Shown: positions 12,808 to 33,818 of the stretch, in pieces
Numbering within the stretch: the first letter of the stretch is position 1
Layout: each line of letters starts with the position of its first letter
Source: a virus
Lineage: Duplodnaviria; Caudoviricetes
IMG/VR virus record: IMGVR_UViG_3300045018_000072
Location: 1-34,098 of that record
Reading direction: 5' to 3' (one strand)
DNA: 34,098 nucleotides
Translations under genes and position numbers: made by a program
Notes under the pieces: generated by a model
The model's database searches: none
What the model was told of the DNA's origin: nothing
Seen by the model: the letters and a program-made list of their open reading frames with translations, nothing else

Positions 12808-13268
12808 GCCGCGAGCCTCCCGCGCTCAGAGCGAGCCTGGTCTTGCTCGCGCAGCCGCATGCGCCAGCCGACCTCTCCGGGCATGCGCTCTGGCGGTCCA
12901 GCAGGGAAGAAGCGCCGCCTGCATCCATCGTCGTAGCGGACCTCGTACCAGTATTGCATATCGTCGTTGACGTGCGGGATGAGCGTCGCCTCCGTCTCGC
13001 GGGCCAGTGAGATCTCCGACAGCTCGATGTCTCCGTGTTCGTCCGAGCCGACGATATGCAAGGCACGCTCCAGGGACTCGATGCCGCTGAGGCGCGGCGT
13101 AGGCAGCAGCTCTCGCTCTGCGCGCTCGACTTCCCTTCCCTCGCCGCGACGCGAGCCGGACCAGCGAGTGCCGATCAGCCAGACGCGATACGGTCGCGTG
13201 CCGAAGTCGCGGTGCAGATCTCGGATGTCATCGGCGATGGGCGCGAAGTCGGTCACGAAGTCAATCAC
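12804..13268 (-). CDS. Putative head-closure (stopper) protein
   Basis: GTG at 13268 overlaps the upstream stop; 154 aa, beta-rich. Called by position between the adaptor and gp10-like genes. Confidence 0.55.
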   Translation of the reverse strand: MIDFVTDFAPIADDIRDLHRDFGTRPYRVWLIGTRWSGSRRGEGREVERAERELLPTPRLSGIESLERALHIVGSDEHGDIELSEISLARETEATLIPHVNDDMQYWYEVRYDDGCRRRFFPAGPPERMPGEVGWRMRLREQDQARSERGRLAA

Positions 13269-13684
13269 GCCGCCATCCTCGTCGCGTTCATGTTCCCGCC
13301 CTGGCCTCCGCCCTGCCACGACATGGGATTGATCGGCGCGCCGGTATCCTGCGAGAGCCGGCCAACCCAGTGCAGGTACTCGCGCCGCCGCGCCTCGCAC
13401 TCGTCACTGCGCAGCCTGATGTCGCCCACGCCTTCCGCCTTGAGCCGTCGCTGCGCCGAGTACAGGTCCTCCTCTGTCGCGTCGCAGCGGGCCAGGGCCA
13501 CGCGGACCAGATCGGCGGCCTCGGCCCTGATCTGGCGCAACGCGCCCTCAACCGGAAACAGGGCCTGGTAGATCGTCGGCACGCCAAGCCCGATCCCCGC
13601 CGCCATCACGTTCTGCGGATAGCCCAGGTGATGCCTGATCCGCGCGAGCTCCTCATCGGTGAACGTGGCGAGGGTCAGTGGCAC
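13265..13684 (-). CDS. Putative head-tail adaptor/connector
   Basis: GTG start with SD AAGGAGG; 139 aa, helical (FTDEELARIRHHLGYP). Positional call. Confidence 0.6.
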   Translation of the reverse strand: MPLTLATFTDEELARIRHHLGYPQNVMAAGIGLGVPTIYQALFPVEGALRQIRAEAADLVRVALARCDATEEDLYSAQRRLKAEGVGDIRLRSDECEARRREYLHWVGRLSQDTGAPINPMSWQGGGQGGNMNATRMAA

Positions 13685-14232
13685 GCGCCCTCCTTGCTCG
13701 GCACGTAGTAGGCGCCGCCGATCTTGCGAGCGCCCCTCAGCTTGCGCCCGTGCGGCATGGGCATGTAGTGCACACCGTCAACGACAAGCCCAGACTCGGC
13801 AGGCGCCGCCATATCGGGCGCCTTCTTGTCTACTTCTTCGGTCGCGGGCGCGGGAGTCGAACCCGCCTGCGCGGGGTATGAGCCCGCGGACACACCGCTT
13901 GTCGAGCCCGCAACGGGCCTGCACCGTAGGCCGTAGGTCGAGATCCAGTTGTTGGCCTCGGCAAGAGACGCGTGGGCCGGCACGAATATCGTCCCCGCGC
14001 GCATGACTATGATCCGTCCGCACCAGTGAATCCGGCAGGAGAGCAGAACGGCGTGCTCTTCGTGCTGGCGCGCGGGATCGATCTCCTGGACCGCGCCCTC
14101 GTCAGTCGGTGGCGGCTCCTTGCGTAGCCGCGCACGGAATGAGTCAAAGGCGCGGGCGATCGCTCCCGTGTCTCGCGCCTTGAATAGCTCCAGATCCATC
14201 CGATCCAGGCCAGCAACCGCTGCCGTCGCCAT
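13675..14232 (-). CDS. Hypothetical protein downstream of the major capsid gene (start 14232 or 14199)
   Basis: Protein-like segment MDLELFKARDTGAIARAFDSFRARLRKE...WISTYGLRCRPV. The stop overlaps the adaptor start. The frame reads through a tRNA-like element. Confidence 0.6.
   Translation of the reverse strand: MATAAVAGLDRMDLELFKARDTGAIARAFDSFRARLRKEPPPTDEGAVQEIDPARQHEEHAVLLSCRIHWCGRIIVMRAGTIFVPAHASLAEANNWISTYGLRCRPVAGSTSGVSAGSYPAQAGSTPAPATEEVDKKAPDMAAPAESGLVVDGVHYMPMPHGRKLRGARKIGGAYYVPSKEGACH
13842..13912 (-). tRNA. tRNA-Met(CAT)-like cloverleaf with initiator-type features; CCA not fully encoded
   Basis: Minus strand reads TGCGGGC TC GACA-AGCGGTG-TGTC C GCGGG-CTCATAC-CCCGC GCAG GCGGG-TTCGACT-CCCGC GCCCGCG A(CCG). 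It has a 7-bp acceptor stem, a D-arm with GG, a CAT anticodon and a TTCGA T-loop. Confidence 0.75.
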
Positions 14233-14239
14233 GCGCCCC

Positions 14240-14646
14240 CATGCCCATGCCAGTCTCGGCCGGGCGCGGGCGGACGCGGCGCACGGGATACTCGCTGGAG
14301 TACGGCCAGCGGACCCCCGCCCGTGTCCTCGCCGCCCGCGACGCGCCAATCTGCGCGCCCTCGCACGGTTGCTCCGCGCCCGCGCATGCGCCCCATTGTG
14401 CAGAATCCCGCTCGGGGGAACGGGCCTGCACCACAGATCGCACACGCGAACACCTCGCCGCCGTCGTCCCTCGCGGGACCGCGACGTGCCCCGATGCCGC
14501 CGGCTCGCGCCGGGTGCATCGTGTCGCCGCCTCCCAGGTCCGCCCATGGGCCCAGGCGCAGCGCTCGGGCAGCAGTGGGCGCCGCCACCCGAGAGACCAC
14601 AGCTCCTCACAGAGCGAGCGCGGGGCGGCCCTGTGGCCGCCCGCGC
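14240..14646 (-). ncRNA. Candidate structured RNA region downstream of the major capsid gene
   Basis: No convincing ORF. A run of hairpins, including two with GCGA (GNRA) tetraloops (14493-14520, 14466-14479) and a G-U-containing 12-bp stem (14564-14593). Confidence 0.4.
14618..14646 (-). terminator. GC-rich hairpin directly after the major capsid stop (terminator or mRNA-stabilising stem)
   Basis: GCGCGGGCGGCC-ACAG-GGCCGCCCCGCGC. There is no real U-tract, so intrinsic termination is uncertain. Confidence 0.4.
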
Positions 14647-14648
14647 AG

Positions 14649-16052
14649 CTATGCGTGCTCGATGACCACGACGCGCTTGTACGCGCTCGAGGTCGTCGCC
14701 GGCAGCGTCGGCTCCGGCTGACCCGGCGTCAGGTAGTCCGTCCCGACCACATGCTCGCCGTGGAACGCCCAGGCGGTCGTCACCACGCGCTGCATGACGT
14801 CCATGGGCCGCCGTATGATCTGCTGGATGCGGTCGGTCATCACGATCAGGCCGTCGTTGGTCACGTTCCACTCGCCGACCTTGCCGGAGAATCCGACCTC
14901 GGTGGACACGATGGCATCCTTCCAGTACTCGATGCCCATCTCGCGGCCAGCGATCACGGTGCGGTTCACGCGGAAGCCACCCGCGTTCGTCAGCTCGCCG
15001 GCCCAGAAATCCTCGCCCGTGCCGTACACGCCAGTCCCCTGCCAGACGTTGGCCACCTGCGGGACTTCGTTGTTGCGGTAGAACTTGCAGCCCTCGACCG
15101 TCGCGACGACGAACTTCGCGTAGGGCTCGTTCTCGTCCACGTCGATCCCGCGGCCGCGATGCAGGAGCAAGAACTCCGTATCGGCGAAGATCTCGGCCTC
15201 GGCCTGCGGAGACAGGTGCAGGTGGTAGTATCCGTCGTCGAACGGCGCGACGTTGCGCGAACGCAGAACAGCCACAGCCTCGCGGATCGTCGCCAGGGTG
15301 AGCAAGTCGGCCGCGCCGAGCACGTCGACGCTGAATCCGCCGCCGCCCGAACGCACGATGTACGATGCCGACTCGGCGAGAACCGGGTCGCGCGCCGCCG
15401 TCGCGAGCGCCACGGAGAGCGTGATCGTGCCCGGCCCGTACTCGTCTCCGGGTATTGCCGGCGTGGCCGCGATCACCTGGCGAGCGTTCCACACGCCGCC
15501 CGTCCAGAAGTAGACGTTCAGCGGGTTGGCCGCGCTCACGGGCTGGAAGCGCCGCGTGTTCGCGTCGAAGGCCCGGCAGAAGCCGTTCAGGAAGGGCACG
15601 ACCTTGTTCACGCCCGCGCCAACGCTCGTGGTCACGGTCTGGCCGTATCCGGCCGCGTTGTAGAGCGCGGTCCTGGCGAGCCGGTTGACCGCCTGGCCGC
15701 CAGACATACCCACGGCCTGCGCGTCGGACATCAGCAGGTCGGCGAGCGTCAGGCCGGCCACGACGATGTCGGTGCCGATCTGGTCGCCATACTCCTGGAT
15801 GCGAACCGGCCACTGCTCGAAGCCGTAGGTGCTCGGCAGCGGGTCGGTCTTCGGCGCAAGGCGCAGCATCTTCGGCGGGATGAGCCCGCGACGCGTCCGC
15901 ACGCCCTCCTGCGATCTGTCGGTCCACTGCTCCGGCGTGAACTCCTGGCGGAACAGGAGCTCCGGGAACAGCGCGTCGAGGAACTGCTTGGCGAGTAGGT
16001 TCTCCTGGATGATGGCCCGCACCTGCGGGTTCTGGACGAAGTAGTCAGACAT
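14649..16052 (-). CDS. Major capsid protein
   Basis: 467 aa following the scaffold. HK97-fold-like segments: WPVRIQEYGDQI, LTLATIREAVAVLRSRNVAPFDDGYYHLHLSP, IIRRPMDVMQRVVTTAW. Strongly biased codon usage. Confidence 0.88.
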   Translation of the reverse strand: MSDYFVQNPQVRAIIQENLLAKQFLDALFPELLFRQEFTPEQWTDRSQEGVRTRRGLIPPKMLRLAPKTDPLPSTYGFEQWPVRIQEYGDQIGTDIVVAGLTLADLLMSDAQAVGMSGGQAVNRLARTALYNAAGYGQTVTTSVGAGVNKVVPFLNGFCRAFDANTRRFQPVSAANPLNVYFWTGGVWNARQVIAATPAIPGDEYGPGTITLSVALATAARDPVLAESASYIVRSGGGGFSVDVLGAADLLTLATIREAVAVLRSRNVAPFDDGYYHLHLSPQAEAEIFADTEFLLLHRGRGIDVDENEPYAKFVVATVEGCKFYRNNEVPQVANVWQGTGVYGTGEDFWAGELTNAGGFRVNRTVIAGREMGIEYWKDAIVSTEVGFSGKVGEWNVTNDGLIVMTDRIQQIIRRPMDVMQRVVTTAWAFHGEHVVGTDYLTPGQPEPTLPATTSSAYKRVVVIEHA

Positions 16053-21885: not shown

Positions 21886-22527
21886 CTACTTCCACACGAC
21901 GATCACGGGCTGCATCGCGTCGGCATTATGCCGCGTCACCGCTCGGGCATGGAGCACGGCAAGGGCGAAGTGCTGCCATTCCGTGCCCGAGGTTGGAACC
22001 CACGGCCACGGAACTGACCAATCGCCCACCTCGGCCTTCTGCGAGAGCAAGGAGACATAGTAACTATGATAGAAATTGCAGTGATCAAAAACGATGACGC
22101 CGCCTGGCCGCAGTCGCGCGAAGAGGCCCGTCAGGACGCGGAAGCCCTGGACGTTCGACAGGTGATAGAAGACGGCCATGGAGTAGATGATGTCGAACGT
22201 CATGTCGGCGGGCAAGTCCTGGGGCCAGTCCACGCGCAGACACCGCGCAGTCGGGACGTTTGCGGCACAGCGAGCGAGGATGTCCGCCGAGGCGTCGGCG
22301 CAGACGAGCGACTTGCAACGAGGCGCCACGGCCTTGGCGATACGGCCGTCGCCGCAGCCGTAGTCGAGCAGGTCCTTGCCGTGCGGCGGGCCGGCGAGGC
22401 CGCAGACCATATCCGCCGAAGCCACGCCCGAGAGCCAATACTGTTCGTCCGTGGCGTTCGCCCCGCCGTCAATGGCCTTGCGTCCGTGCTCCGCGTGGAG
22501 CCGATTCCATGTCGCGCCGAAGTCCAT
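21886..22527 (-). CDS. Class I SAM-dependent methyltransferase
   Basis: ATG at 22527 is coupled to the upstream TGA. Motifs LLDYGCGDGR, CADAS, FDIIYSMAVFYH and LRPGG. Confidence 0.88.
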   Translation of the reverse strand: MDFGATWNRLHAEHGRKAIDGGANATDEQYWLSGVASADMVCGLAGPPHGKDLLDYGCGDGRIAKAVAPRCKSLVCADASADILARCAANVPTARCLRVDWPQDLPADMTFDIIYSMAVFYHLSNVQGFRVLTGLFARLRPGGVIVFDHCNFYHSYYVSLLSQKAEVGDWSVPWPWVPTSGTEWQHFALAVLHARAVTRHNADAMQPVIVVWK

Positions 22528-23195
22528 CAGGCACCTCTCTTCAGGGCCGCGACGGCCTTGCCAACGAAGCGTCGCGCCCAGTCCTGATCGTAGTGCGCCC
22601 AGGAGCACGTCGGCGAGAGCGGCGGTGCGTCCCAGGGAACAGCGAACACCGGCCATCCGAGCGGCGCAAGCGTATGCACCATCTCGGCTTGGTGCTCCAT
22701 GAGCCTGGCCCGATACTCGCTCTCGCCGTGCACGCGGTATCGCCCCGAATGGTAGAGCACGATGCCGCCACGACCTCCGCTTACTTGCAGTGCGTGGTGG
22801 ACCGCGAGCCAGTCCGCGCGGACATCCTCGACGGAACGCTGCGGCAGGCCCGGATATCGAGCGCGGAAGCCCTTCCAGTCCGGCGTCTCCCATGGCGCGC
22901 CCTCCGGCCGGATGGGGACGCCGTCCACGTCGTAGTAGTGATACATCGCGTCCGCAAACGGAGACCAAAGGACGGCGCCTATGTGCTCCGATTCCGCGGG
23001 CAGATCGCCGAAGTACGAGAAACCGAACGAGCGCAGCGCATCACAGGCGGCCGCGTATCGCTCTGCGCAGTCCCGGTCGCCTGATACGAGCGCGCGCACC
23101 ACGTCAGAGCGGAGATATTGCGTCGCCACACACGGATGCGTCGCGGCCCACGGCAGGCCCACACAGCCAACGGAGAGGAGCGGGCGGTCCGTCAC
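22527..23195 (-). CDS. Hypothetical protein in the glycosyltransferase cassette
   Basis: 222 aa, coupled to both neighbours (GTGA and TGATG overlaps). No motif recognised with confidence. Confidence 0.6.
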   Translation of the reverse strand: MTDRPLLSVGCVGLPWAATHPCVATQYLRSDVVRALVSGDRDCAERYAAACDALRSFGFSYFGDLPAESEHIGAVLWSPFADAMYHYYDVDGVPIRPEGAPWETPDWKGFRARYPGLPQRSVEDVRADWLAVHHALQVSGGRGGIVLYHSGRYRVHGESEYRARLMEHQAEMVHTLAPLGWPVFAVPWDAPPLSPTCSWAHYDQDWARRFVGKAVAALKRGA

Positions 23196-24121
23196 TCCAG
23201 CCCCCTCATGATCGTACCGATCAGCCCGCCTACATGGACGGCTGACCAGCCGCGCGCGAGTTCGCGGGCCACTTCTGCTCGCTTGTCCAGGGCCTCGCGC
23301 GGTTCCTCCGCAAGAGCCCGGAGCCTACAGGCCAGGTCATCCGCCTGGCGCGTCTCGGCAATGTAGGCGCCGTCCTCTCCGCCATGGCCCATGAAGGGCC
23401 GCGCTGGTGATGCCCCGCATGACAGGATCGGGCAGCCCAGGGCCGCCGCGTCCACGACCGCCGCGGAAAAGCCCTCGTGCAATGAGAGCGACGCGAACAC
23501 GTCCAGCGAGTCGTACCACGCTGGCATGTCCTCGGGCCGCAGGAGTATGTCAAGACCCGCGACTTCGAGCGTGACGGCCACGCCCATATCGCGCGCCGTC
23601 GTGATGGCCTCGCGCATCACGCCCACGCCCTTGTGATCCAGCGCGTTATGAGACCAGCCGTTGCTGATCATGCCGACGCGCAGGCCCTCATGGGGCGTCA
23701 CGACCCGCTCCCGCTTCGGGTGCACAGGGTCGGACGGGAACGGATGGAACACGGCATCGGGCCGCACGACCAGAAATCGAATCGACTGCGTGAGCAACCC
23801 GTCCGCCAGGGCCAGGGCAAAGGCGAATGGCTCGCGGTTGTGCCAGGAGTAGTCATCCACTACGTCCGCGAGATACTTGCAGCCGGGCCGCGCGAGCCCG
23901 CGCTGATGCAGCTCGGCCAGAAACCACCAGGACGTGCAGTAGACCACGTCCGCGTGCGGCATGCCCGCATAGTTGGGCTGGTGGCCTTCTCGCAGCGCCG
24001 CAAGCGATGGGATCAAGTAGTGCGTGCTCGCCTCGATGCCGCGCCCCAGGTGCGGAATCACCCGGCGCGCGAACGAATCCAGCGCCCATCCTGGCACGTC
24101 AACGACGAAGACAGCCTTCAT
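23192..24121 (-). CDS. Glycosyltransferase, GT-B fold (GT4-like)
   Basis: HKG, then MPAWYDSLDVFASLSLHEGFSAAVVDAAALGCPIL, the GT4 EX7E-type region (here E-x7-D). Confidence 0.85.
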   Translation of the reverse strand: MKAVFVVDVPGWALDSFARRVIPHLGRGIEASTHYLIPSLAALREGHQPNYAGMPHADVVYCTSWWFLAELHQRGLARPGCKYLADVVDDYSWHNREPFAFALALADGLLTQSIRFLVVRPDAVFHPFPSDPVHPKRERVVTPHEGLRVGMISNGWSHNALDHKGVGVMREAITTARDMGVAVTLEVAGLDILLRPEDMPAWYDSLDVFASLSLHEGFSAAVVDAAALGCPILSCGASPARPFMGHGGEDGAYIAETRQADDLACRLRALAEEPREALDKRAEVARELARGWSAVHVGGLIGTIMRGLE

Positions 24122-25236
24122 GTTCCTCCTGTCAACGCCTCGATCATGCGCGGCAGATCCTCTCGTTGCCAGCGGTCAACGTCCGCGAGGTCGCGGACGC
24201 GACGCACGGCCGCCTGGCGACAGCGCTCGCGGATCGCCGGTGCTCGCGTCGCGATTGAGTTGAGCGCGCCAGCCGCCACGGTCGCCAGATCGCCAAGGTC
24301 TGGCAGGACGAAACTTCCCGTCTCTGGCGTCGCCACATTCCGCACGTCGCCCACGTGCGTCGAAACCACAGGCACGCCGGCGGCGAGAGACTCCCAGACC
24401 ATGCAAGGCGAGCCCTCCGCGAACGAGAGCAGCAAGGTCGCGTCGCAGGCCGAATAGAACGGGCGCATGTCCGCGGTCGGCGGAAGCTCATGTACGCGAT
24501 CCGCGATGCCCAGATTGCGGGCGAGGGTGCGCATCGAGTCTCGACAGTCGGACCAGTAGCGGACGAACTCGGGCGCCTGGCGCTCGTCTACGAGCCCGGC
24601 CAGGGCCAGGTGAGCGTCGAGCCCGAGACGCCGCAAGATCTCGACCGCCGCTACGAGCGTGACCACGCGCTTGCCCCAACAGGCCCGACCTGCATACCCT
24701 ACGATGAAGCCGCGAGCGGGCAGGCCCAGGGCAACGCGCGCCGCCGCCTGACTGAGGGCCGCGAACTCCGCCGCGTCGAAGCGGTTGCGGACGCAGACGA
24801 CGCACTGGCTCGGCACGCCTGCGGCGATGGCCTCGGAGACCTCGTGCTCGGCGATGACCACGACGCGATCCCAGAGAGGCAGCAGATCTGGAGTGAGGAA
24901 CCGCCGCGACCAGGTGCCGAGCGAGTGCAGGACGCAGGACATGTGCCGCACGAGCGGCCGAGCGCGCGGCAGAAGCGGGATAAGCGGCTCCGCGATGTCG
25001 CAGACAAACGCATCTTCAGGCTCCAGGTGGCACGCAAGCCACGCGGTCGTCAGTCCGCGCGCGTCAATGACCCGCACGGACGGCCGCAGCATGCGCTCGA
25101 AGATGCCGCCCGGATGGCAGACCAGGACCGCGATCCGCACGCCCGCATCGGCCAGCGCGTTGATCCACCCCATGGCCGCGCGGTCAGCACCGCCGAGCCC
25201 AAGTGAGAGACAGGCAAACCAGAGGCGGCCGGTCAT
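24118..25236 (-). CDS. Glycosyltransferase family 4
   Basis: ATG at 25236 is coupled to the upstream stop. Motifs LGGADR, GYAGR...KR and SFAEGSPCMVWESLAAGVPVVSTHVGD. Confidence 0.9.
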   Translation of the reverse strand: MTGRLWFACLSLGLGGADRAAMGWINALADAGVRIAVLVCHPGGIFERMLRPSVRVIDARGLTTAWLACHLEPEDAFVCDIAEPLIPLLPRARPLVRHMSCVLHSLGTWSRRFLTPDLLPLWDRVVVIAEHEVSEAIAAGVPSQCVVCVRNRFDAAEFAALSQAAARVALGLPARGFIVGYAGRACWGKRVVTLVAAVEILRRLGLDAHLALAGLVDERQAPEFVRYWSDCRDSMRTLARNLGIADRVHELPPTADMRPFYSACDATLLLSFAEGSPCMVWESLAAGVPVVSTHVGDVRNVATPETGSFVLPDLGDLATVAAGALNSIATRAPAIRERCRQAAVRRVRDLADVDRWQREDLPRMIEALTGGT

Positions 25237-25436
25237 ACTTCGTTCTTGCCCCTTGGTCTCGGCCGCTCCGTTGCTCCCCACCTTGCCCTTGCTGCCTTGT
25301 GCGCTCGCTCGCTCCGCTGCTTCGGCGTGGCCTTGCGCGCGGCGGCCAAGCCGCCCATGCGGGCGAGGTCAGTGACAGTAAGGGGCGGACCGCCTTGAAT
25401 CTCTAATGGCAAGACATGATGGGTGCGGCCCGCCAT
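25233..25436 (-). CDS. Small basic protein with a GG.A.A....(E/Q)RSE.A.KAA.ARW motif (putative nucleic-acid binding)
   Basis: 67 aa; LARMGGLAAARKATPKQRSERAHKAARARW. The stop overlaps the GT4 start. Confidence 0.6.
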   Translation of the reverse strand: MAGRTHHVLPLEIQGGPPLTVTDLARMGGLAAARKATPKQRSERAHKAARARWGATERPRPRGKNEV

Positions 25437-27056: not shown

Positions 27057-27185
27057 TCAGGTCCCGGAACTGCGCGCGCCCGCCGCCGCCCTCGCGCCTC
27101 CGCCCTTGCCGCCCTTGCCGCCCTTGCCGCCCTTGCCGCCCTTGCCGCCCTTGCCGCCCTTGCCGCTTGCTGTCTTCTTGGCCAT
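27057..27185 (-). CDS. 42-aa Gly/Lys-repeat peptide MAKKTAS(GKG)7GGARAAAGARSSGT
   Basis: SD AGGAG lies 7 nt upstream of the ATG at 27185. The ORF starts 4 nt after the previous stop and ends 34 nt before terL. Absent from the ORF track because of its size. Confidence 0.75.
   Translation of the reverse strand: MAKKTASGKGGKGGKGGKGGKGGKGGKGGGARAAAGARSSGT
27102..27164. repeat. Perfect tandem repeat, 7 x 9 bp (GCCCTTGCC; GGCAAGGGC on the minus strand)
   Basis: Read directly from the sequence. The unit is codon-length and encodes Gly-Lys-Gly. Confidence 0.97.
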
Positions 27186-27189
27186 CGCA

Positions 27190-27663
27190 CTACTCCTGCC
27201 GCCTCAATGGCAGCGCAAGATCATTCGACGCCGCATCGGGCTTGCTTGTCAAGAATCGAATGCTCGCCTCCGGAAGGGCAATCCCTTCCTGTCTCGCCAC
27301 GGTCAGGCCGTCGAGGTACTTGTCCCCACACCAGCCTTTCGCGCACAAGAACGCCTCTTTCTGCTCGCGCGACTGAAAGCACAAGCAGCACCAATACTCG
27401 GAATCCGTTGCCGCCACGAATCGCCGGATGTCCTGCGCTCGGCGTTCGGCGAATGCCCGCTGCACGGCATTCAGCTCCGCCTTGCAATCGGCCTCCGTGT
27501 TGTTGGTCCGGACCACTCCCGCGAGAGGATCTGGTCGCGCGGGCGCCAGAACCACCGCTCCATCGTCGGAGCCAAAGTCGGTCTGTGCCAATGCCGCGAG
27601 CGCCGCATCGTTGCCGAGACGACGCAATGCCTCGATGTCAGGGTCAGCGTCGGGAGCACTCAT
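27190..27663 (-). CDS. Hypothetical protein, partner of the PP-loop enzyme (157 aa)
   Basis: ATG at 27663 with SD GGAGGT overlaps the end of the upstream gene. Contains the motif-like block TDSEYWCCLCFQSREQKEAFL...GDKYLDG. Confidence 0.7.
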   Translation of the reverse strand: MSAPDADPDIEALRRLGNDAALAALAQTDFGSDDGAVVLAPARPDPLAGVVRTNNTEADCKAELNAVQRAFAERRAQDIRRFVAATDSEYWCCLCFQSREQKEAFLCAKGWCGDKYLDGLTVARQEGIALPEASIRFLTSKPDAASNDLALPLRRQE

Positions 27664-28351
27664 AGCGAAACACCTCCAGGTCTGCCATCGGGAACCACTC
27701 CAGGATGCGAGCATAATCTCGTGGATACCACTGCTTGATGCCGTAGAGGAAACGAAAGTCGAGCCCGTCGAAGCTCCGGCCGAAGATGCGGTACTCGGCC
27801 GGAAGCCTCGTTCCGCAGCGGTGAATCAGGTCCACTACCGCCGCCTTGTTCATGTCCCACACCGGGAAGTACGTGTGCTTCTTTCGCCGAATCGGGCCGT
27901 ACTTCGTGAACGCCATGCGGCGCTGTATATTGTCGCAGGCCCGAGTCCCGACCGCGTTCCACGGGGAGACAGACAGGCCCACGTCTTCCGCCACGTCGTC
28001 CCGCACGTCGTCATCCGAGAACCGCGCCAAGCGGCACGCCGCGATGATCGGGCCGCGCTCCGGCGGCTGAAACACTCGGTTGCGGAGCATCCGATACAGG
28101 GATGGGTGCGGAACGCGGATAATGTGACAACGAAAGAACTGCTCATAGTAGTGCAGTCCCTCTTCGACGAACTCCAGGTCGGGCACCAGGTACTTGTAGA
28201 ACGGGATCACCTCGTCGAAGACGGGGCGAAGCACCAACCACGCCGCGAGCGAGTCCTTGCCGCAGGAGAAGGCCAGCAGGGTCCGCGGTGTTTCCGTTCG
28301 CACCTGTCGCGCGACTTCTAGGCCAGTCGGCCATTGCGGCGCGAGGTTCAT
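27644..28351 (-). CDS. PP-loop (adenine nucleotide alpha hydrolase) protein, PAPS-reductase-like
   Basis: LLAFSCGKDSLAAW (PP-loop SxGKDS), AVGTRACDNIQRR (GxRxxD/E..R) and FPVWDM (P..DW-like). Confidence 0.85.
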   Translation of the reverse strand: MNLAPQWPTGLEVARQVRTETPRTLLAFSCGKDSLAAWLVLRPVFDEVIPFYKYLVPDLEFVEEGLHYYEQFFRCHIIRVPHPSLYRMLRNRVFQPPERGPIIAACRLARFSDDDVRDDVAEDVGLSVSPWNAVGTRACDNIQRRMAFTKYGPIRRKKHTYFPVWDMNKAAVVDLIHRCGTRLPAEYRIFGRSFDGLDFRFLYGIKQWYPRDYARILEWFPMADLEVFRYECSRR

Positions 28352-29481: not shown

Positions 29482-30714
29482 TCATGCGGCCGGCTCCAGA
29501 TCATCGAACGCCGCCCCGTCCTCGCGCGTCGCCTTCCTGCCTGTGAGCCGCTGCCAGCGACGGATGATCACGTCGCAGTAGTGCGGGTCAAGTTCGACAA
29601 GGCGCGCAATGCGACCCAGTTGCTCCGCCGCGATGAGGGTCGTTCCCGAGCCCGCGAACACGTCAAGAATCGTCTGGCCGCGCGTCGAAAGCCTCTTGAT
29701 CATCCATCCCCACAGAGCTACCGGCTTTGGGCATGGGTGGTCTATGTCGGCGGCATTGGCGGGCACATTGAGATTCAGCGCATCGGGCCAAGATCCTCGC
29801 CCGGCGCGCGACCTCGGATCTTTACCATAGGCCAGGAATGGGGTCCAGCAGTTGAAACCCCATGGTGACGGAAACGGACCTGCACCATAGAACCAACAAA
29901 GCACCCAATCGGGACACGGATATAACCATTGCTCTCTTATCCCACACGAGAAAACAACGGCATGTGCCGCCTCGCGTGCGAGCGGCAGCCACCTTGCCGC
30001 GAGCGCACGTGCGGCCTCCTCTGAATCGTCAAATGATCTATATCCCAGGCCCACGCCGTACGGCGGATCCGTCAGGCAAACATCAGCGGTTTCCCCACTC
30101 ATGGATTTTGCAACAGCGGCCGGATCGGTGCAGTCCGCGCACAAAAGCCGGTGCCGCCCGAGCATCCACAGGTCGCCCGGTCGCGAAACCGTGGCCTCCT
30201 GCGCAGCCGGAGCCTCGTCCTCGGCCGTCGGGCCATCCGGCTCCGACGCCTCGGACGTTGTCGCCGCCTGCGCCAGTTCGTCCATGAGCACGTCGAGCCG
30301 CAGCGGCCCGAGGTCTACTTCCTGTGACGCAAGCTCCTCAAGTTGCCTGAGCGCGTCTTCCGTAAACTCGCCGCCGATGCTCGGGTTGTTCGCTGCGATG
30401 TTCGCCTGCCGCTCCGTCTGTTCATCCCAGTCCACCACGCGCACGGAGAAGCGCTCACCCGTGGCAGGGTGTTCTATCCAGCGCCGCTCGCCGTCCACGA
30501 TCCATTCGGTCGCCCCGGCCGCGCGTAGTTGCGCAATGCGCTGGTGTCCCGTGACCAGGTGCCCGGTGCGCCTGTTCCATGTGATGCCCGCGATGTCACC
30601 AAAGCGGCGCAGGCTCTCCCCGAGTCCGGCCGCGGCTTCGGCGGTGATCCGCCGCGGGTTGCGCGGGTCGGGAGCGAGGTCGGCGATGTCCCGCGAAGTC
30701 TGTTCCCTTCTCAC
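29482..30714 (-). CDS. ParB-like N-terminal domain fused to an N6-adenine/N4-cytosine DNA methyltransferase (beta class)
   Basis: GTG at 30714 is coupled to the upstream stop. Motifs PDPRNPR, LVTGHQR, GDLWMLGRHRLLCAD, TDPPY, HPCPKP, LDVFAGSGTT and ELDPHYCDVIIRRW. Confidence 0.92.
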   Translation of the reverse strand: MRREQTSRDIADLAPDPRNPRRITAEAAAGLGESLRRFGDIAGITWNRRTGHLVTGHQRIAQLRAAGATEWIVDGERRWIEHPATGERFSVRVVDWDEQTERQANIAANNPSIGGEFTEDALRQLEELASQEVDLGPLRLDVLMDELAQAATTSEASEPDGPTAEDEAPAAQEATVSRPGDLWMLGRHRLLCADCTDPAAVAKSMSGETADVCLTDPPYGVGLGYRSFDDSEEAARALAARWLPLAREAAHAVVFSCGIREQWLYPCPDWVLCWFYGAGPFPSPWGFNCWTPFLAYGKDPRSRAGRGSWPDALNLNVPANAADIDHPCPKPVALWGWMIKRLSTRGQTILDVFAGSGTTLIAAEQLGRIARLVELDPHYCDVIIRRWQRLTGRKATREDGAAFDDLEPAA

Positions 30715-30962
30715 TTCTCGCTCCCTGGCTTTGATCTGCGAACCGACAAGCAACTGGCCACAAGCGCGTTGGCCCTCGCTACGGCCAGGGCCTTGGCGGC
30801 CTCGGCCAGCTTGCCGGACAACTCCGCAATCATGTCAGTGTCTTTGTCCTCGATGAAGACTGCGCGCATGATGGCCCCAGCCATCCGGCGCACCCTCTCC
30901 CCGGCCTCGTATACTGGATCTCGCGGCGTTGTCGCTTTTGCCGCCGCTGCCCCGCGAGCCAT
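30711..30962 (-). CDS. Hypothetical protein (83 aa)
   Basis: SD GGGAG; helical and Ala-rich. The stop overlaps the MTase start. Confidence 0.6.
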   Translation of the reverse strand: MARGAAAAKATTPRDPVYEAGERVRRMAGAIMRAVFIEDKDTDMIAELSGKLAEAAKALAVARANALVASCLSVRRSKPGSEK

Positions 30963-32388: not shown

Positions 32389-32725
32389 GGTCGCCTCCCC
32401 GCTGTCTGCACTCCCTCACTTTGCCCCATCCTCTCCCGCTGTACCCCACTTCCCAGCACTCGCCCGCCATCCCGTGCCACTCCGCCGCCGCCTCGACAGC
32501 GGCACGCGCGCTCGTTCGCGGATCGCGTTGCTGCTCGCACGAGTAGCGGGACCAGCGCGGGATCACGCCGCCGATACCGCAGGCTCCAGAGCGCGGGTTG
32601 ACCGCCTCCGGATCGAACCCGCTCTCCACGTGCAGGCATCGGTGCCAGAGCCGCGCGCAGACGGGGGCCGGGAGGGCGGAGAAACATTCCGTCACGAGCC
32701 ACAATGCTGCCAGCAGGCTACTCAT
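32381..32725 (-). CDS. Lytic transglycosylase (SLT-like), possible lysin
   Basis: HVESGFDPEAVNPRSGACGIGGV resembles the SLT ES...P.A....GA.GLMQ motif. Hydrophobic N-terminus; 114 aa; ATGA-coupled to the MTase stop. Confidence 0.65.
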   Translation of the reverse strand: MSSLLAALWLVTECFSALPAPVCARLWHRCLHVESGFDPEAVNPRSGACGIGGVIPRWSRYSCEQQRDPRTSARAAVEAAAEWHGMAGECWEVGYSGRGWGKVRECRQRGGDHE

Positions 32726-33630
32726 GCCGTCAGCCCTTCCCGTTCCGCAATGCTCTGGACCCACCGTCCGACAACTTCCGCGACCTGCGGCACGACCGCG
32801 TTGCCAAGACAACGGAGGCGAGCACGGCGGGCACGAGCGTCCAGCCATCCGGGAACCCCATCAGGGCCTCCACGAACGAAGGAGAAAGCACGCGGCCGGG
32901 TGGGCGCACAGTTGGGATGCCGCTGGAGATAGTCGCGCCATCCGTCTGCGTCGTCGGGCCCGGGAGGCCAGTCATGGCATACGCTGGTCGCTTGCCGCCG
33001 TTCCCTGCGTATCGTGCCTGCGCCATGTCCTCTGGCGTCTCCATCCCTGCGGTCGGCGACGGCCATGTCCTCGCCTGCCTGTCCAGCCCCGCCTCCCCCT
33101 TCCGCTCGCCACCCCGGCTGCGAAACGAATCCGCGCCCGGCGTCTGCCAGCCATCCGACGACGAAGATCCGGTGCCGTCTGTGCGGTGCTCCAACGTCGC
33201 ACGCTCCGATACGACACCACTCCGCATCGTACCCGAGGTCGGCCAGCGAACGGAGCACGTCTCCGAAGGCGGTGCCCCGGTTTGCCCGGAGCAGGCCGGG
33301 TACGTTCTCCACGACGACAAGGCGCGGTCGTAGCACGCACAGAACCCGCTCAAACTCCGGCCACAGCCACCGATGATCGGCTTGCGCTCGGGCCTTGCCC
33401 GCACACGAGACGGGCGGGCAGGGGAAGCCGCCGCAGATGAGGTCGGGTCGGACAGCAGAAGCGTCAACTGCTCTGACATCGGGATACCTCGTCATGCCGG
33501 GCCAATGCCGCTCCAGGACTTCGCGGCAGTACGGGTCACATTCGCACTGCCAGATCGTCGGCCCGAGGCCAGCGCGCTCAAGGCCAAGCTCCAGGCCGCC
33601 GATCCCACTGAACAGTGAGCCGATGGTCAC
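32722..33630 (-). CDS. DNA (cytosine-5) methyltransferase, main (alpha) polypeptide
   Basis: GTG at 33630 is coupled to the upstream stop. Motifs I LFSGIGG, IV GFPCPPVS, VI VENVPGL, VIII HRRHRIFVVG and X LGNAVVPQVA. Confidence 0.93.
   Translation of the reverse strand: MTIGSLFSGIGGLELGLERAGLGPTIWQCECDPYCREVLERHWPGMTRYPDVRAVDASAVRPDLICGGFPCPPVSCAGKARAQADHRWLWPEFERVLCVLRPRLVVVENVPGLLRANRGTAFGDVLRSLADLGYDAEWCRIGACDVGAPHRRHRIFVVGWLADAGRGFVSQPGWRAEGGGGAGQAGEDMAVADRRDGDARGHGAGTIRRERRQATSVCHDWPPGPDDADGWRDYLQRHPNCAPTRPRAFSFVRGGPDGVPGWLDARARRARLRCLGNAVVPQVAEVVGRWVQSIAEREGLTA
32730..33479 (-). CDS. Nested +1-frame polypeptide (putative beta subunit of the C5-MTase, carrying motif IX)
   Basis: A 249-aa ORF entirely inside the MTase gene, with SD GAGGT 6 nt before its ATG. 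RVLSPSFVEALMGFPDGWT resembles C5-MTase motif IX. Confidence 0.72.
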   Translation of the reverse strand: MSEQLTLLLSDPTSSAAASPARPSRVRARPERKPIIGGCGRSLSGFCACYDRALSSWRTYPACSGQTGAPPSETCSVRWPTSGTMRSGVVSERATLEHRTDGTGSSSSDGWQTPGADSFRSRGGERKGEAGLDRQARTWPSPTAGMETPEDMAQARYAGNGGKRPAYAMTGLPGPTTQTDGATISSGIPTVRPPGRVLSPSFVEALMGFPDGWTLVPAVLASVVLATRSCRRSRKLSDGGSRALRNGKG

Positions 33631-33818
33631 GGCTCCTCCTCCCGCTCTCGCCGCAGCGCCGCTAGGGCGTCGGCCAGGGCGCGGGCAGCGCACTCGCCCT
33701 CCTCGACCTCGTGCGCCCACACCTGGACGCCCAGGACGGCCGTGGTGCGCGTCCCGTGCATCCGCGTGCAGTAGAGTTCCTCCCAAGCTTCCTCGACCCG
33801 CTTCTCGGCCTCAGTCAT
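33627..33818 (-). CDS. Hypothetical protein (63 aa, MTEAEKRVEEAWEEL...)
   Basis: SD GGAGGG; ATGA and GTGA coupling at both ends. Confidence 0.6.
   Translation of the reverse strand: MTEAEKRVEEAWEELYCTRMHGTRTTAVLGVQVWAHEVEEGECAARALADALAALRREREEEP

Follow-up and report, generated by a model that had tools for sequence, protein, structure and literature searches.

An initiator-like tRNA inside the reading frame of a small head-module gene of an uncultured lake-water phage

Phage and gene content of the locus

The window, i.e., the whole stretch of DNA that was analysed, is an entire virus record of 34,098 bases with a G+C content of 67%. The minus strand carries a structural operon of terminase, portal, head morphogenesis, major capsid, neck, sheath, and baseplate genes. 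By this gene set, the phage is a myophage-like tailed phage. DNA of this uncultured phage was contained in contigs from lake-water runs, and the capsid scan of GTDB genomes detected no prophage. Around the terminase gene, methyltransferase-like, glycosyltransferase, PAPS-reductase-like, and two DNA methyltransferase genes were seen (21886-25281, 27644-28351, 29482-30753, and 32722-33786, minus strand), which are possibly a DNA modification set. A short tandem repeat with a period of 9 nt lies upstream of the terminase gene at 27100-27160.

The features of the locus are as follows.

14649..16052, minus strand: major capsid protein gene (PHROG 1357, E 5.6e-9; 80 homologs)
14233..14648, minus strand: spacer of ~415 nt from the capsid stop to ORFX, apparently non-coding, without a coding-like frame and of similar length in many relatives
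13675..14232, minus strand: ORFX, the host gene of the tRNA, 185 aa from ATG 14232 or 174 aa from ATG 14199, assigned by profile matches and codon use
13912..14094, minus strand: folded domain of ORFX, ~60 aa (beta hairpin, helix, strand), from HMM positions 1-62/63 and AlphaFold2
13840..13912, minus strand: tRNA-Met(CAU) of predicted initiator type, from ARAGORN, an initiator covariance model, and a cloverleaf as minimum-energy fold
13840..13911, minus strand: 24 tRNA-encoded codons, AGSTSGVSAGSYPAQAGSTPAPAT, a predicted unstructured linker (pLDDT 52-59, no secondary structure)
13675..13812, minus strand: last 45 ORFX codons from internal ATG 13812 (codon score 0.55; weak ribosome-binding site, anti-SD pairing -4.5 kcal/mol)
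13265..13684, minus strand: putative head-to-tail adaptor gene, named by position only, with a homolog at 71/80 capsid loci
13912..13925 and 14419-14432: two identical 14-nt stretches in direct orientation, the first abutting the 5' end of the tRNA, perhaps by chance (expectation of 0.43 such pairs in a simulated window)

The start of the putative adaptor gene overlaps the end of ORFX by 10 nt, and the gene has its own strong ribosome-binding site at 13695-13689 (anti-SD pairing -11.9 kcal/mol). PHROG and Pfam searches gave nothing informative for its protein. No sigma-70 promoter was found in 13200-14800, and the single weak terminator-like site (13804-13788) compares with 0.3 expected by chance. 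The spacer 14233-14648 (minus strand) is GC-rich and is a candidate structured RNA or processing region. ORFs 14007-14600, 14144-14443, and 13778-14023 were rejected, being without homologs or without coding-like codon use, and the 750-aa extension of the ORFX frame given by the ORF finder was not coding-like upstream of 14232.

The host gene ORFX and the nested tRNA

In related loci (80 loci with this capsid type), a small conserved gene sits between the capsid and putative adaptor genes. A profile from 65 distant loci, made without the window and without its close relatives, matched only the frame 14232-13675 within the region (E 8e-7 on protein). With a profile from 18 close homologs, the same frame was the sole match in the six frames of the window (E 6e-7, 62/63 positions); the alignment by which these homologs were retrieved contained the protein of the window itself. 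From its 21 matches, the long repeat proteins P0089 and P0103 were dropped. Direct search with ORFX alone gave no matches among 566 candidates, and Pfam and PHROGs contained no family for it. An open frame by itself is weak evidence here, since none of the three minus-strand frames has a stop within the tRNA, and it is the homology that shows the CDS to be real. Codon use in the ORFX frame scored 0.37 bits per codon before the tRNA, 0.01 inside it, and 0.59 after it. The 9 codons ahead of internal ATG 13812 were also coding-like, and zero codon adaptation was confined to the tRNA stretch. Judged from sequence, the frame around the tRNA is a real gene, the homolog of the small gene conserved in the family. 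The initial annotation had placed the tRNA in the ORF after the capsid gene; a real same-strand CDS was recovered there by profile matches, with the qualification that it starts ~415 nt past the capsid stop.

The domain alone was modeled by AlphaFold2 with a mean pLDDT of 96, and it ends at the codon containing tRNA position 1. In distant relatives, the protein stops at most 10 residues after the domain in 63/65, and one has 49 more, a count from which the L016 row was left out because a poor domain had been picked. The close homologs have a tail in 19/19 cases, of 29-153 aa, low-complexity and rich in P, A, E, S, G, T, K, and D. The tail of the window's ORFX is 77 aa and like theirs in composition, with 24 residues coming from the tRNA. 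In two ORFX homologs (L091 4322-4714 and P0090), the tail ends in a zinc-finger-like motif by weak Pfam matches, which would mean that the tail of ORFX homologs swaps modules.

In fold comparison, three Foldseek runs on ORFX models gave no matches at E <= 0.001, and two VIA runs gave none at Z >= 5. With the full ORFX model, PDB 2lsm, which stands for the fold of the C-terminal domain of lambda gpFI, was placed at rank 2 in Foldseek (E 1.1, TM 0.46, not significant), and it was absent among the matches listed for the domain-only model. The best VIA matches were mitoribosomal chain 6hiv_AI in one run (Z 3.5, rmsd 3.5, 52 aligned) and CMG helicase chain 3jc5_A in the other (Z 3.2, rmsd 3.0, 51 aligned). 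The gene of lambda gpFI comes after the capsid gene, as ORFX does. This position and the weak fold matches suggest that the ORFX product may be a gpFI-like packaging helper.

A complete cloverleaf at 13842..13912, followed by A-CC-G, had been claimed without a strand. The four stems were recovered as described, on the minus strand. Positions 1-72 of the tRNA are 13912-13843, A73 is 13842, and C74C75 are 13841-13840, followed by G 13839. Since the 3' end in DNA is A-C-C-G and A76 of the CCA is not encoded, the final A must come from the host. The 7/4/5/5-bp stems, U8, A14, G18G19, U33, and T-loop UUCGA are all present. All 22 stem pairs are intact, i.e., 21 Watson-Crick and 1 wobble, and the T-loop and anticodon are perfect.

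The ORF reads through the tRNA without a stop, as the initial annotation stated, in 24 codons (13911-13840) that are identical in independent assemblies. L001, L002, and contigs of runs X7, X8, and X9 cross the tRNA with 0 differences. Because of this agreement, sequence error is excluded. Contigs of runs X10, X12, X13, and X14 gave no coverage of the tRNA region, and their 35-nt matches with 5 differences are other DNA.

By ARAGORN, one tRNA was detected in the whole window, tRNA-Met(cat) at 13840-13912, with a score of about 125, kept at threshold 125. The control, 200 Markov-4 simulated windows, gave 6 calls in total, none of them Met. A covariance model of 73 other viral initiator-like tRNAs scored the element at 63.1 bits (E about 2e-15) and the next site in the window at 11.5 bits. 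The score is partly circular, because the element itself fits the anticodon/T-loop pattern by which the model tRNAs were chosen; the circularity touches the anticodon and T loops and leaves the acceptor and D arms unaffected. With this model, 64-75 bits were obtained for four further viral CAU tRNAs that share its anticodon arm, and 30-55 for other isotypes. Rfam RF00005 gave no match for the element at the gathering score. Its best Rfam match was tRNA-Sec (30.4 bits, E 0.001), and the Rfam library also missed the tRNA-Met of L079, an ARAGORN call. In blastn against 50,697 phage records, only partial, non-significant matches were found.

The cloverleaf is the minimum-energy fold, both alone and with 6/8 flank lengths tried. 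GCGGG/CCCGC is common to three stems, so a misfold lies just 0.5 kcal/mol above the cloverleaf, and the ensemble probability is about 0.33 for the anticodon and T arms. Immediately 5' of the tRNA (13916-13932, minus strand), the folded message shows a hairpin of 5 bp whose loop has 7 nt.

For initiator identity, R29G30G31/Y39C40Y41 and A11:U24 are described as initiator features, and G12:C23 as an fMet discriminator in cellular genomes (PMC1635315). The element has a CAU anticodon and the anticodon stem G29G30G31/C39C40C41, i.e., three G-C pairs that agree with the first of these features, and also A11:U24, A73, and the formylase pairs G2:C71 and C3:G70. G12:C23 is absent, and C12:G23 stands instead. 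The pairs of Ile2 type (C4:G69, C5:G68, or G3/A3:C70/U70) are absent as well, the element having G4:C69, G5:C68, and C3:G70; these determinants of tRNA-Ile2 are not universal (PMC1635315). Three G-C pairs and a non-Watson-Crick 1-72 pair had been read as initiator hallmarks. The G-C pairs stand, and the 1-72 pair is U-G as claimed, but it is a U1·G72 wobble and not the usual mismatch. Natural initiator tRNAs with U1·G72 exist and may also elongate, and 2:71 and 3:70 are the formylase pairs (PMC6265465).

The viral initiator-like set came from the first 120 of ~2,700 viral stretches whose anticodon arm and T loop are of the initiator type. For base counts, 121 matches gave 111 CAU calls, of which 103 were unique and 96 were scored, 7 being skipped for odd acceptor length. 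Among these matches listed, U1·G72 is shared by 3/96. Position 38 is A in 85, T in 10, and C in 1 (here C38), and position 9 is G in 50, A in 39, T in 5, and C in 2 (here C9), again among the matches listed, where G21 (3/96) and G48 (7/96) are likewise rare. The variable loop is 4 nt. At sequence level, the assignment of the element as an initiator-like tRNA is supported.

The register of ORFX puts codons on tRNA positions 8-10 and 36-38. Among the matches listed, this register is stop-free in 6/96 viral initiator-like tRNAs and the other two registers in 76 and 26, and positions 8-10 are TAG in 35/96. Here, C38 makes the usual in-frame U36-A37-A38 stop (TAA) into TAC, and via C9 the codon at 8-10 is TCG. 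Such rare bases at stop-prone codons would fit selection for an open frame. C38 may be older than the nesting, as it is also present in the tRNA-Met that lies between genes in relative L079. The stop would equally be avoided by G9, the most frequent base at this position, other rare bases of the tRNA are unrelated to stops, and the chance that 79 codons of such composition stay open is 0.15.

Occurrence among relatives and alternative readings

The nesting was found in a single lineage, i.e., only the near-identical L001 and L002, and in 0/77 further capsid loci and 0/19 close homolog proteins. In the closest lineages with DNA (L014/L093, L015/L092, and L091; capsid 51-55% identical), the tail is present, with no tRNA or remnant. 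A T-loop-type peptide motif was found in 0/19 close homolog tails, by a motif test and not a DNA test. We infer that the tRNA gene was recently gained in the lineage of the window. The tRNAs found elsewhere in related loci are as follows.

L079 2567-2641: tRNA-Met, just after the capsid gene, outside conserved genes
L083 5531-5617: tRNA-Tyr, just after the capsid gene, outside conserved genes
L088 2881-2967: tRNA-Tyr, just after the capsid gene, outside conserved genes
L054 2936-3010: tRNA-Thr, in the head module, between genes

Besides the window's copies, a tRNA in the capsid-adaptor spacer was found only in L079, L083, and L088 among 72 spacers. ARAGORN also gives a candidate tRNA-Pro in L038. 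A weak ARAGORN tRNA-Met in the L021 homolog was rejected, as its stems are broken, and it is a possible pseudogene. In L102, L128, L142, L155, L174, and L196, viral initiator-like tRNAs were seen around which a frame stays open, for 150 nt or more on the upstream side and 60 nt or more on the downstream side; these are possible further nested cases, or GC-rich chance.

HNH-endonuclease-like ORFs were seen by eye between capsid and adaptor in L018, L026, L032, L034, L078, and L081. The capsid-adaptor spacer appears to be an insertion hot spot. Apart from tRNAs, a conserved hairpin was observed in 23/72 post-capsid spacers (E < 0.01), with near-identical loci counted separately. It consists of GCAAACC, a variable stem, and GGAACCGC, with an outer stem closing. 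These spacers include those of L019, L023, L027, L032, L035, L038, L069, L071, and L087 and are apparently non-coding, ~400-500 nt. By eye, the stem sequences vary while the pairing is kept. Rfam search of the hairpin in L019, L030, and L069 gave nothing at E <= 0.5, and the spacer of the window has no match to the motif. The hairpin is possibly an undescribed phage ncRNA.

Of the alternative readings, one takes the element as a relic, i.e., a captured tRNA gene that is now linker code only and is not matured or charged usefully. The rare C9, G21, C38, G48, and C12:G23, the lack of an encoded CCA and of an Rfam match, the competing fold 0.5 kcal/mol away, and the absence from all relatives examined agree with it. 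However, the 22 stem pairs are all intact, neither the T-loop nor the anticodon shows a flaw, the element reaches the model score of other viral initiator-like tRNAs, and its third positions are without drift to the codon preference of the genome, although a very recent capture would look alike. We consider a relic unlikely. As an account of origin, the idea in the initial annotation of a captured tRNA turned protein linker describes the locus well, since the closest homologs have a linker-like tail and no tRNA.

In another reading, the cloverleaf matters mainly as a processing signal, at which RNase P and 3' nucleases part the capsid and neck/tail messages and reduce ORFX output, the tRNA product being incidental. 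In favor of this are the location at the head/neck boundary, a domain end that coincides with the predicted cut, and the strong ribosome-binding site that the next gene has for itself, and a like logic was proposed for selC in selB (PMC8124441). But a cutting site has no need of CAU, three G-C pairs, A11:U24, or formylase pairs, and all of them are kept. A spacer tRNA is missing from most relatives and occurs only in L079, L083, and L088 besides the window's copies among 72 spacers. That the element is mainly a processing signal seems quite improbable, and nothing observed speaks for it over the reading with a tRNA product.

The annotation in public data corresponds to an ordinary intergenic tRNA, followed by a separate 45-aa ORF from ATG 13812, with the upstream frame accidental or a sequence error. 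By exact look-ups, the public protein collection has the last 45 aa of ORFX, and the 185- and 174-aa forms are absent. The frames open in all three registers across the tRNA also suit this reading. The ribosome-binding site of the 45-aa ORF, listed in its favor too, is weak. Against it, the upstream frame is the conserved gene of the family, and a tail is present in 19/19 close homologs. As no stop lies ahead of the tRNA in any spanning assembly, a ribosome on the upstream frame must read through. An ordinary intergenic tRNA is very unlikely. An attP, i.e., an attachment site for integration into a host tRNA gene, is hardly credible, for although a 23-nt T-arm/acceptor stretch is exact in 3 GTDB contigs, 2 of them within CAU tRNAs, the GTDB tRNAs with this match differ completely in the 5' half, no tyrosine integrase was found in 4 related records (17-49% complete) or among 42 window proteins scanned, no contig joint lies at the tRNA, and integration there would split the virion operon.

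Proposed dual use and comparison with known systems

The reading that we favor, with some reserve, is dual-use DNA: ORFX would be translated through the element, and host nucleases would excise a working initiator tRNA from the late mRNA. On the sequence evidence, this is somewhat probable. The mechanism follows general tRNA biology and the model that was put forward for selC within selB (PMC8124441). The uncut late message would give the full ORFX protein of 174-185 aa. If the cloverleaf forms before a ribosome reaches it, RNase P would cut at 13912, 3' nucleases would trim, and the CCA-adding enzyme would complete the end, giving a 74-nt initiator tRNA. The 5' piece left by excision would be a stop-less message ending at the last residue of the domain. 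Its rescue may lead to tagging and degradation, or to release of a domain-only protein like the short form of distant relatives. The 3' piece would retain the weak internal start at 13812 and the strong ribosome-binding site of the adaptor gene. The tRNA is probably tolerated inside the gene because the Pro/Ala/Ser/Thr tail is length-tolerant and no stop stands in the register.

The benefit is likely to be more initiator tRNA in late expression. C38 possibly gives resistance to anticodon-loop nucleases as well. Enteric VapC cuts tRNA at the A38/C39 bond (PMC4105405), and C38 falls at this bond position, which agrees with the anticodon-nuclease hypothesis (PMC10264068). The support for an anticodon-nuclease role of C38 is circumstantial, and the loss of the in-frame stop would explain C38 equally. 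A stronger form would make the locus a working switch in the late message, with RNase P cleavage at the end of the domain, release of a nuclease-resistant initiator, a change from tailed to domain-only protein, neck/tail expression uncoupled from capsid, and C38 and C9 selected because they hold open a register that is normally closed. We regard this full switch as doubtful. If it were true, tails of phage genes would be routine, overlooked landing places of tRNAs, hidden by annotation pipelines.

The locus shows a route by which a tRNA lands in a length-tolerant tail beside the most highly expressed late gene. It also points to a blind spot of annotation, because, for a gene conserved in the family, the public collection has just the last 45 aa and lacks both full-length forms. 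Because the locus is small (560 nt), a direct test of translation versus tRNA maturation competing on one message is possible.

The element was compared with bacterial tRNA-fMet (PMC6265465, PMC1635315, and PMC2528185). Both have CAU, G-C pairs 29-31/39-41, G2:C71, C3:G70, A11:U24, and A73. The element differs in having U1·G72 in place of the C1xA72 mismatch and C38 in place of A38, by which the C32·A38 contact is lost. It also differs by C12:G23, C9, G21, G48, the 4-nt variable loop, and the lack of CCA. Phage tRNAs with anticodon-loop changes (van den Berg 2023, PMC10264068) are similar in having a changed base at a nuclease cut site, whereas they are described there as free-standing genes in tRNA-rich phages. 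According to the same source, phages as a rule avoid carrying a tRNA-fMet gene where tRNA-fMet is the target of VapC-LT2.

The lambda gpFI packaging chaperone (PMC13595911), like the ORFX product, has a small alpha/beta domain and disordered parts, but the fold match falls short of significance, and no sequence family is matched. In mitochondria of Armadillidium, a tRNA-Lys lies wholly in the coding region of cox1 in direct orientation (cited in PMC8124441). That case is one of organelle compaction, with a 60-nt degenerate tRNA and no phage context. In the open-access literature, which was the scope of the search, no report of a whole tRNA inside a phage gene was found. PMC4324244 concerns nested protein genes.

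For bacteria, a whole tRNA inside an ORF has already been published, namely selC (tRNA-Sec) within selB in Alphaproteobacteria (Mukai 2021, PMC8124441). As in the window, the tRNA lies whole and on the same strand in a C-terminal extension of its host gene, counts a multiple of three nucleotides, often lacks an encoded CCA, and sits in an ORF whose end overlaps the next gene. Processing of selC was predicted to leave a non-stop message, in work that is likewise purely bioinformatic (PMC8124441). The two systems differ in logic and spread. SelB binds the nested tRNA, which gives a homeostasis logic, and many species share the layout (PMC8124441). In the window, by contrast, the host is a head-module gene with no tRNA link that is known or that its sequence or fold would suggest, the tRNA is initiator-like, the tail is older than the tRNA, and the nesting belongs to a single lineage.
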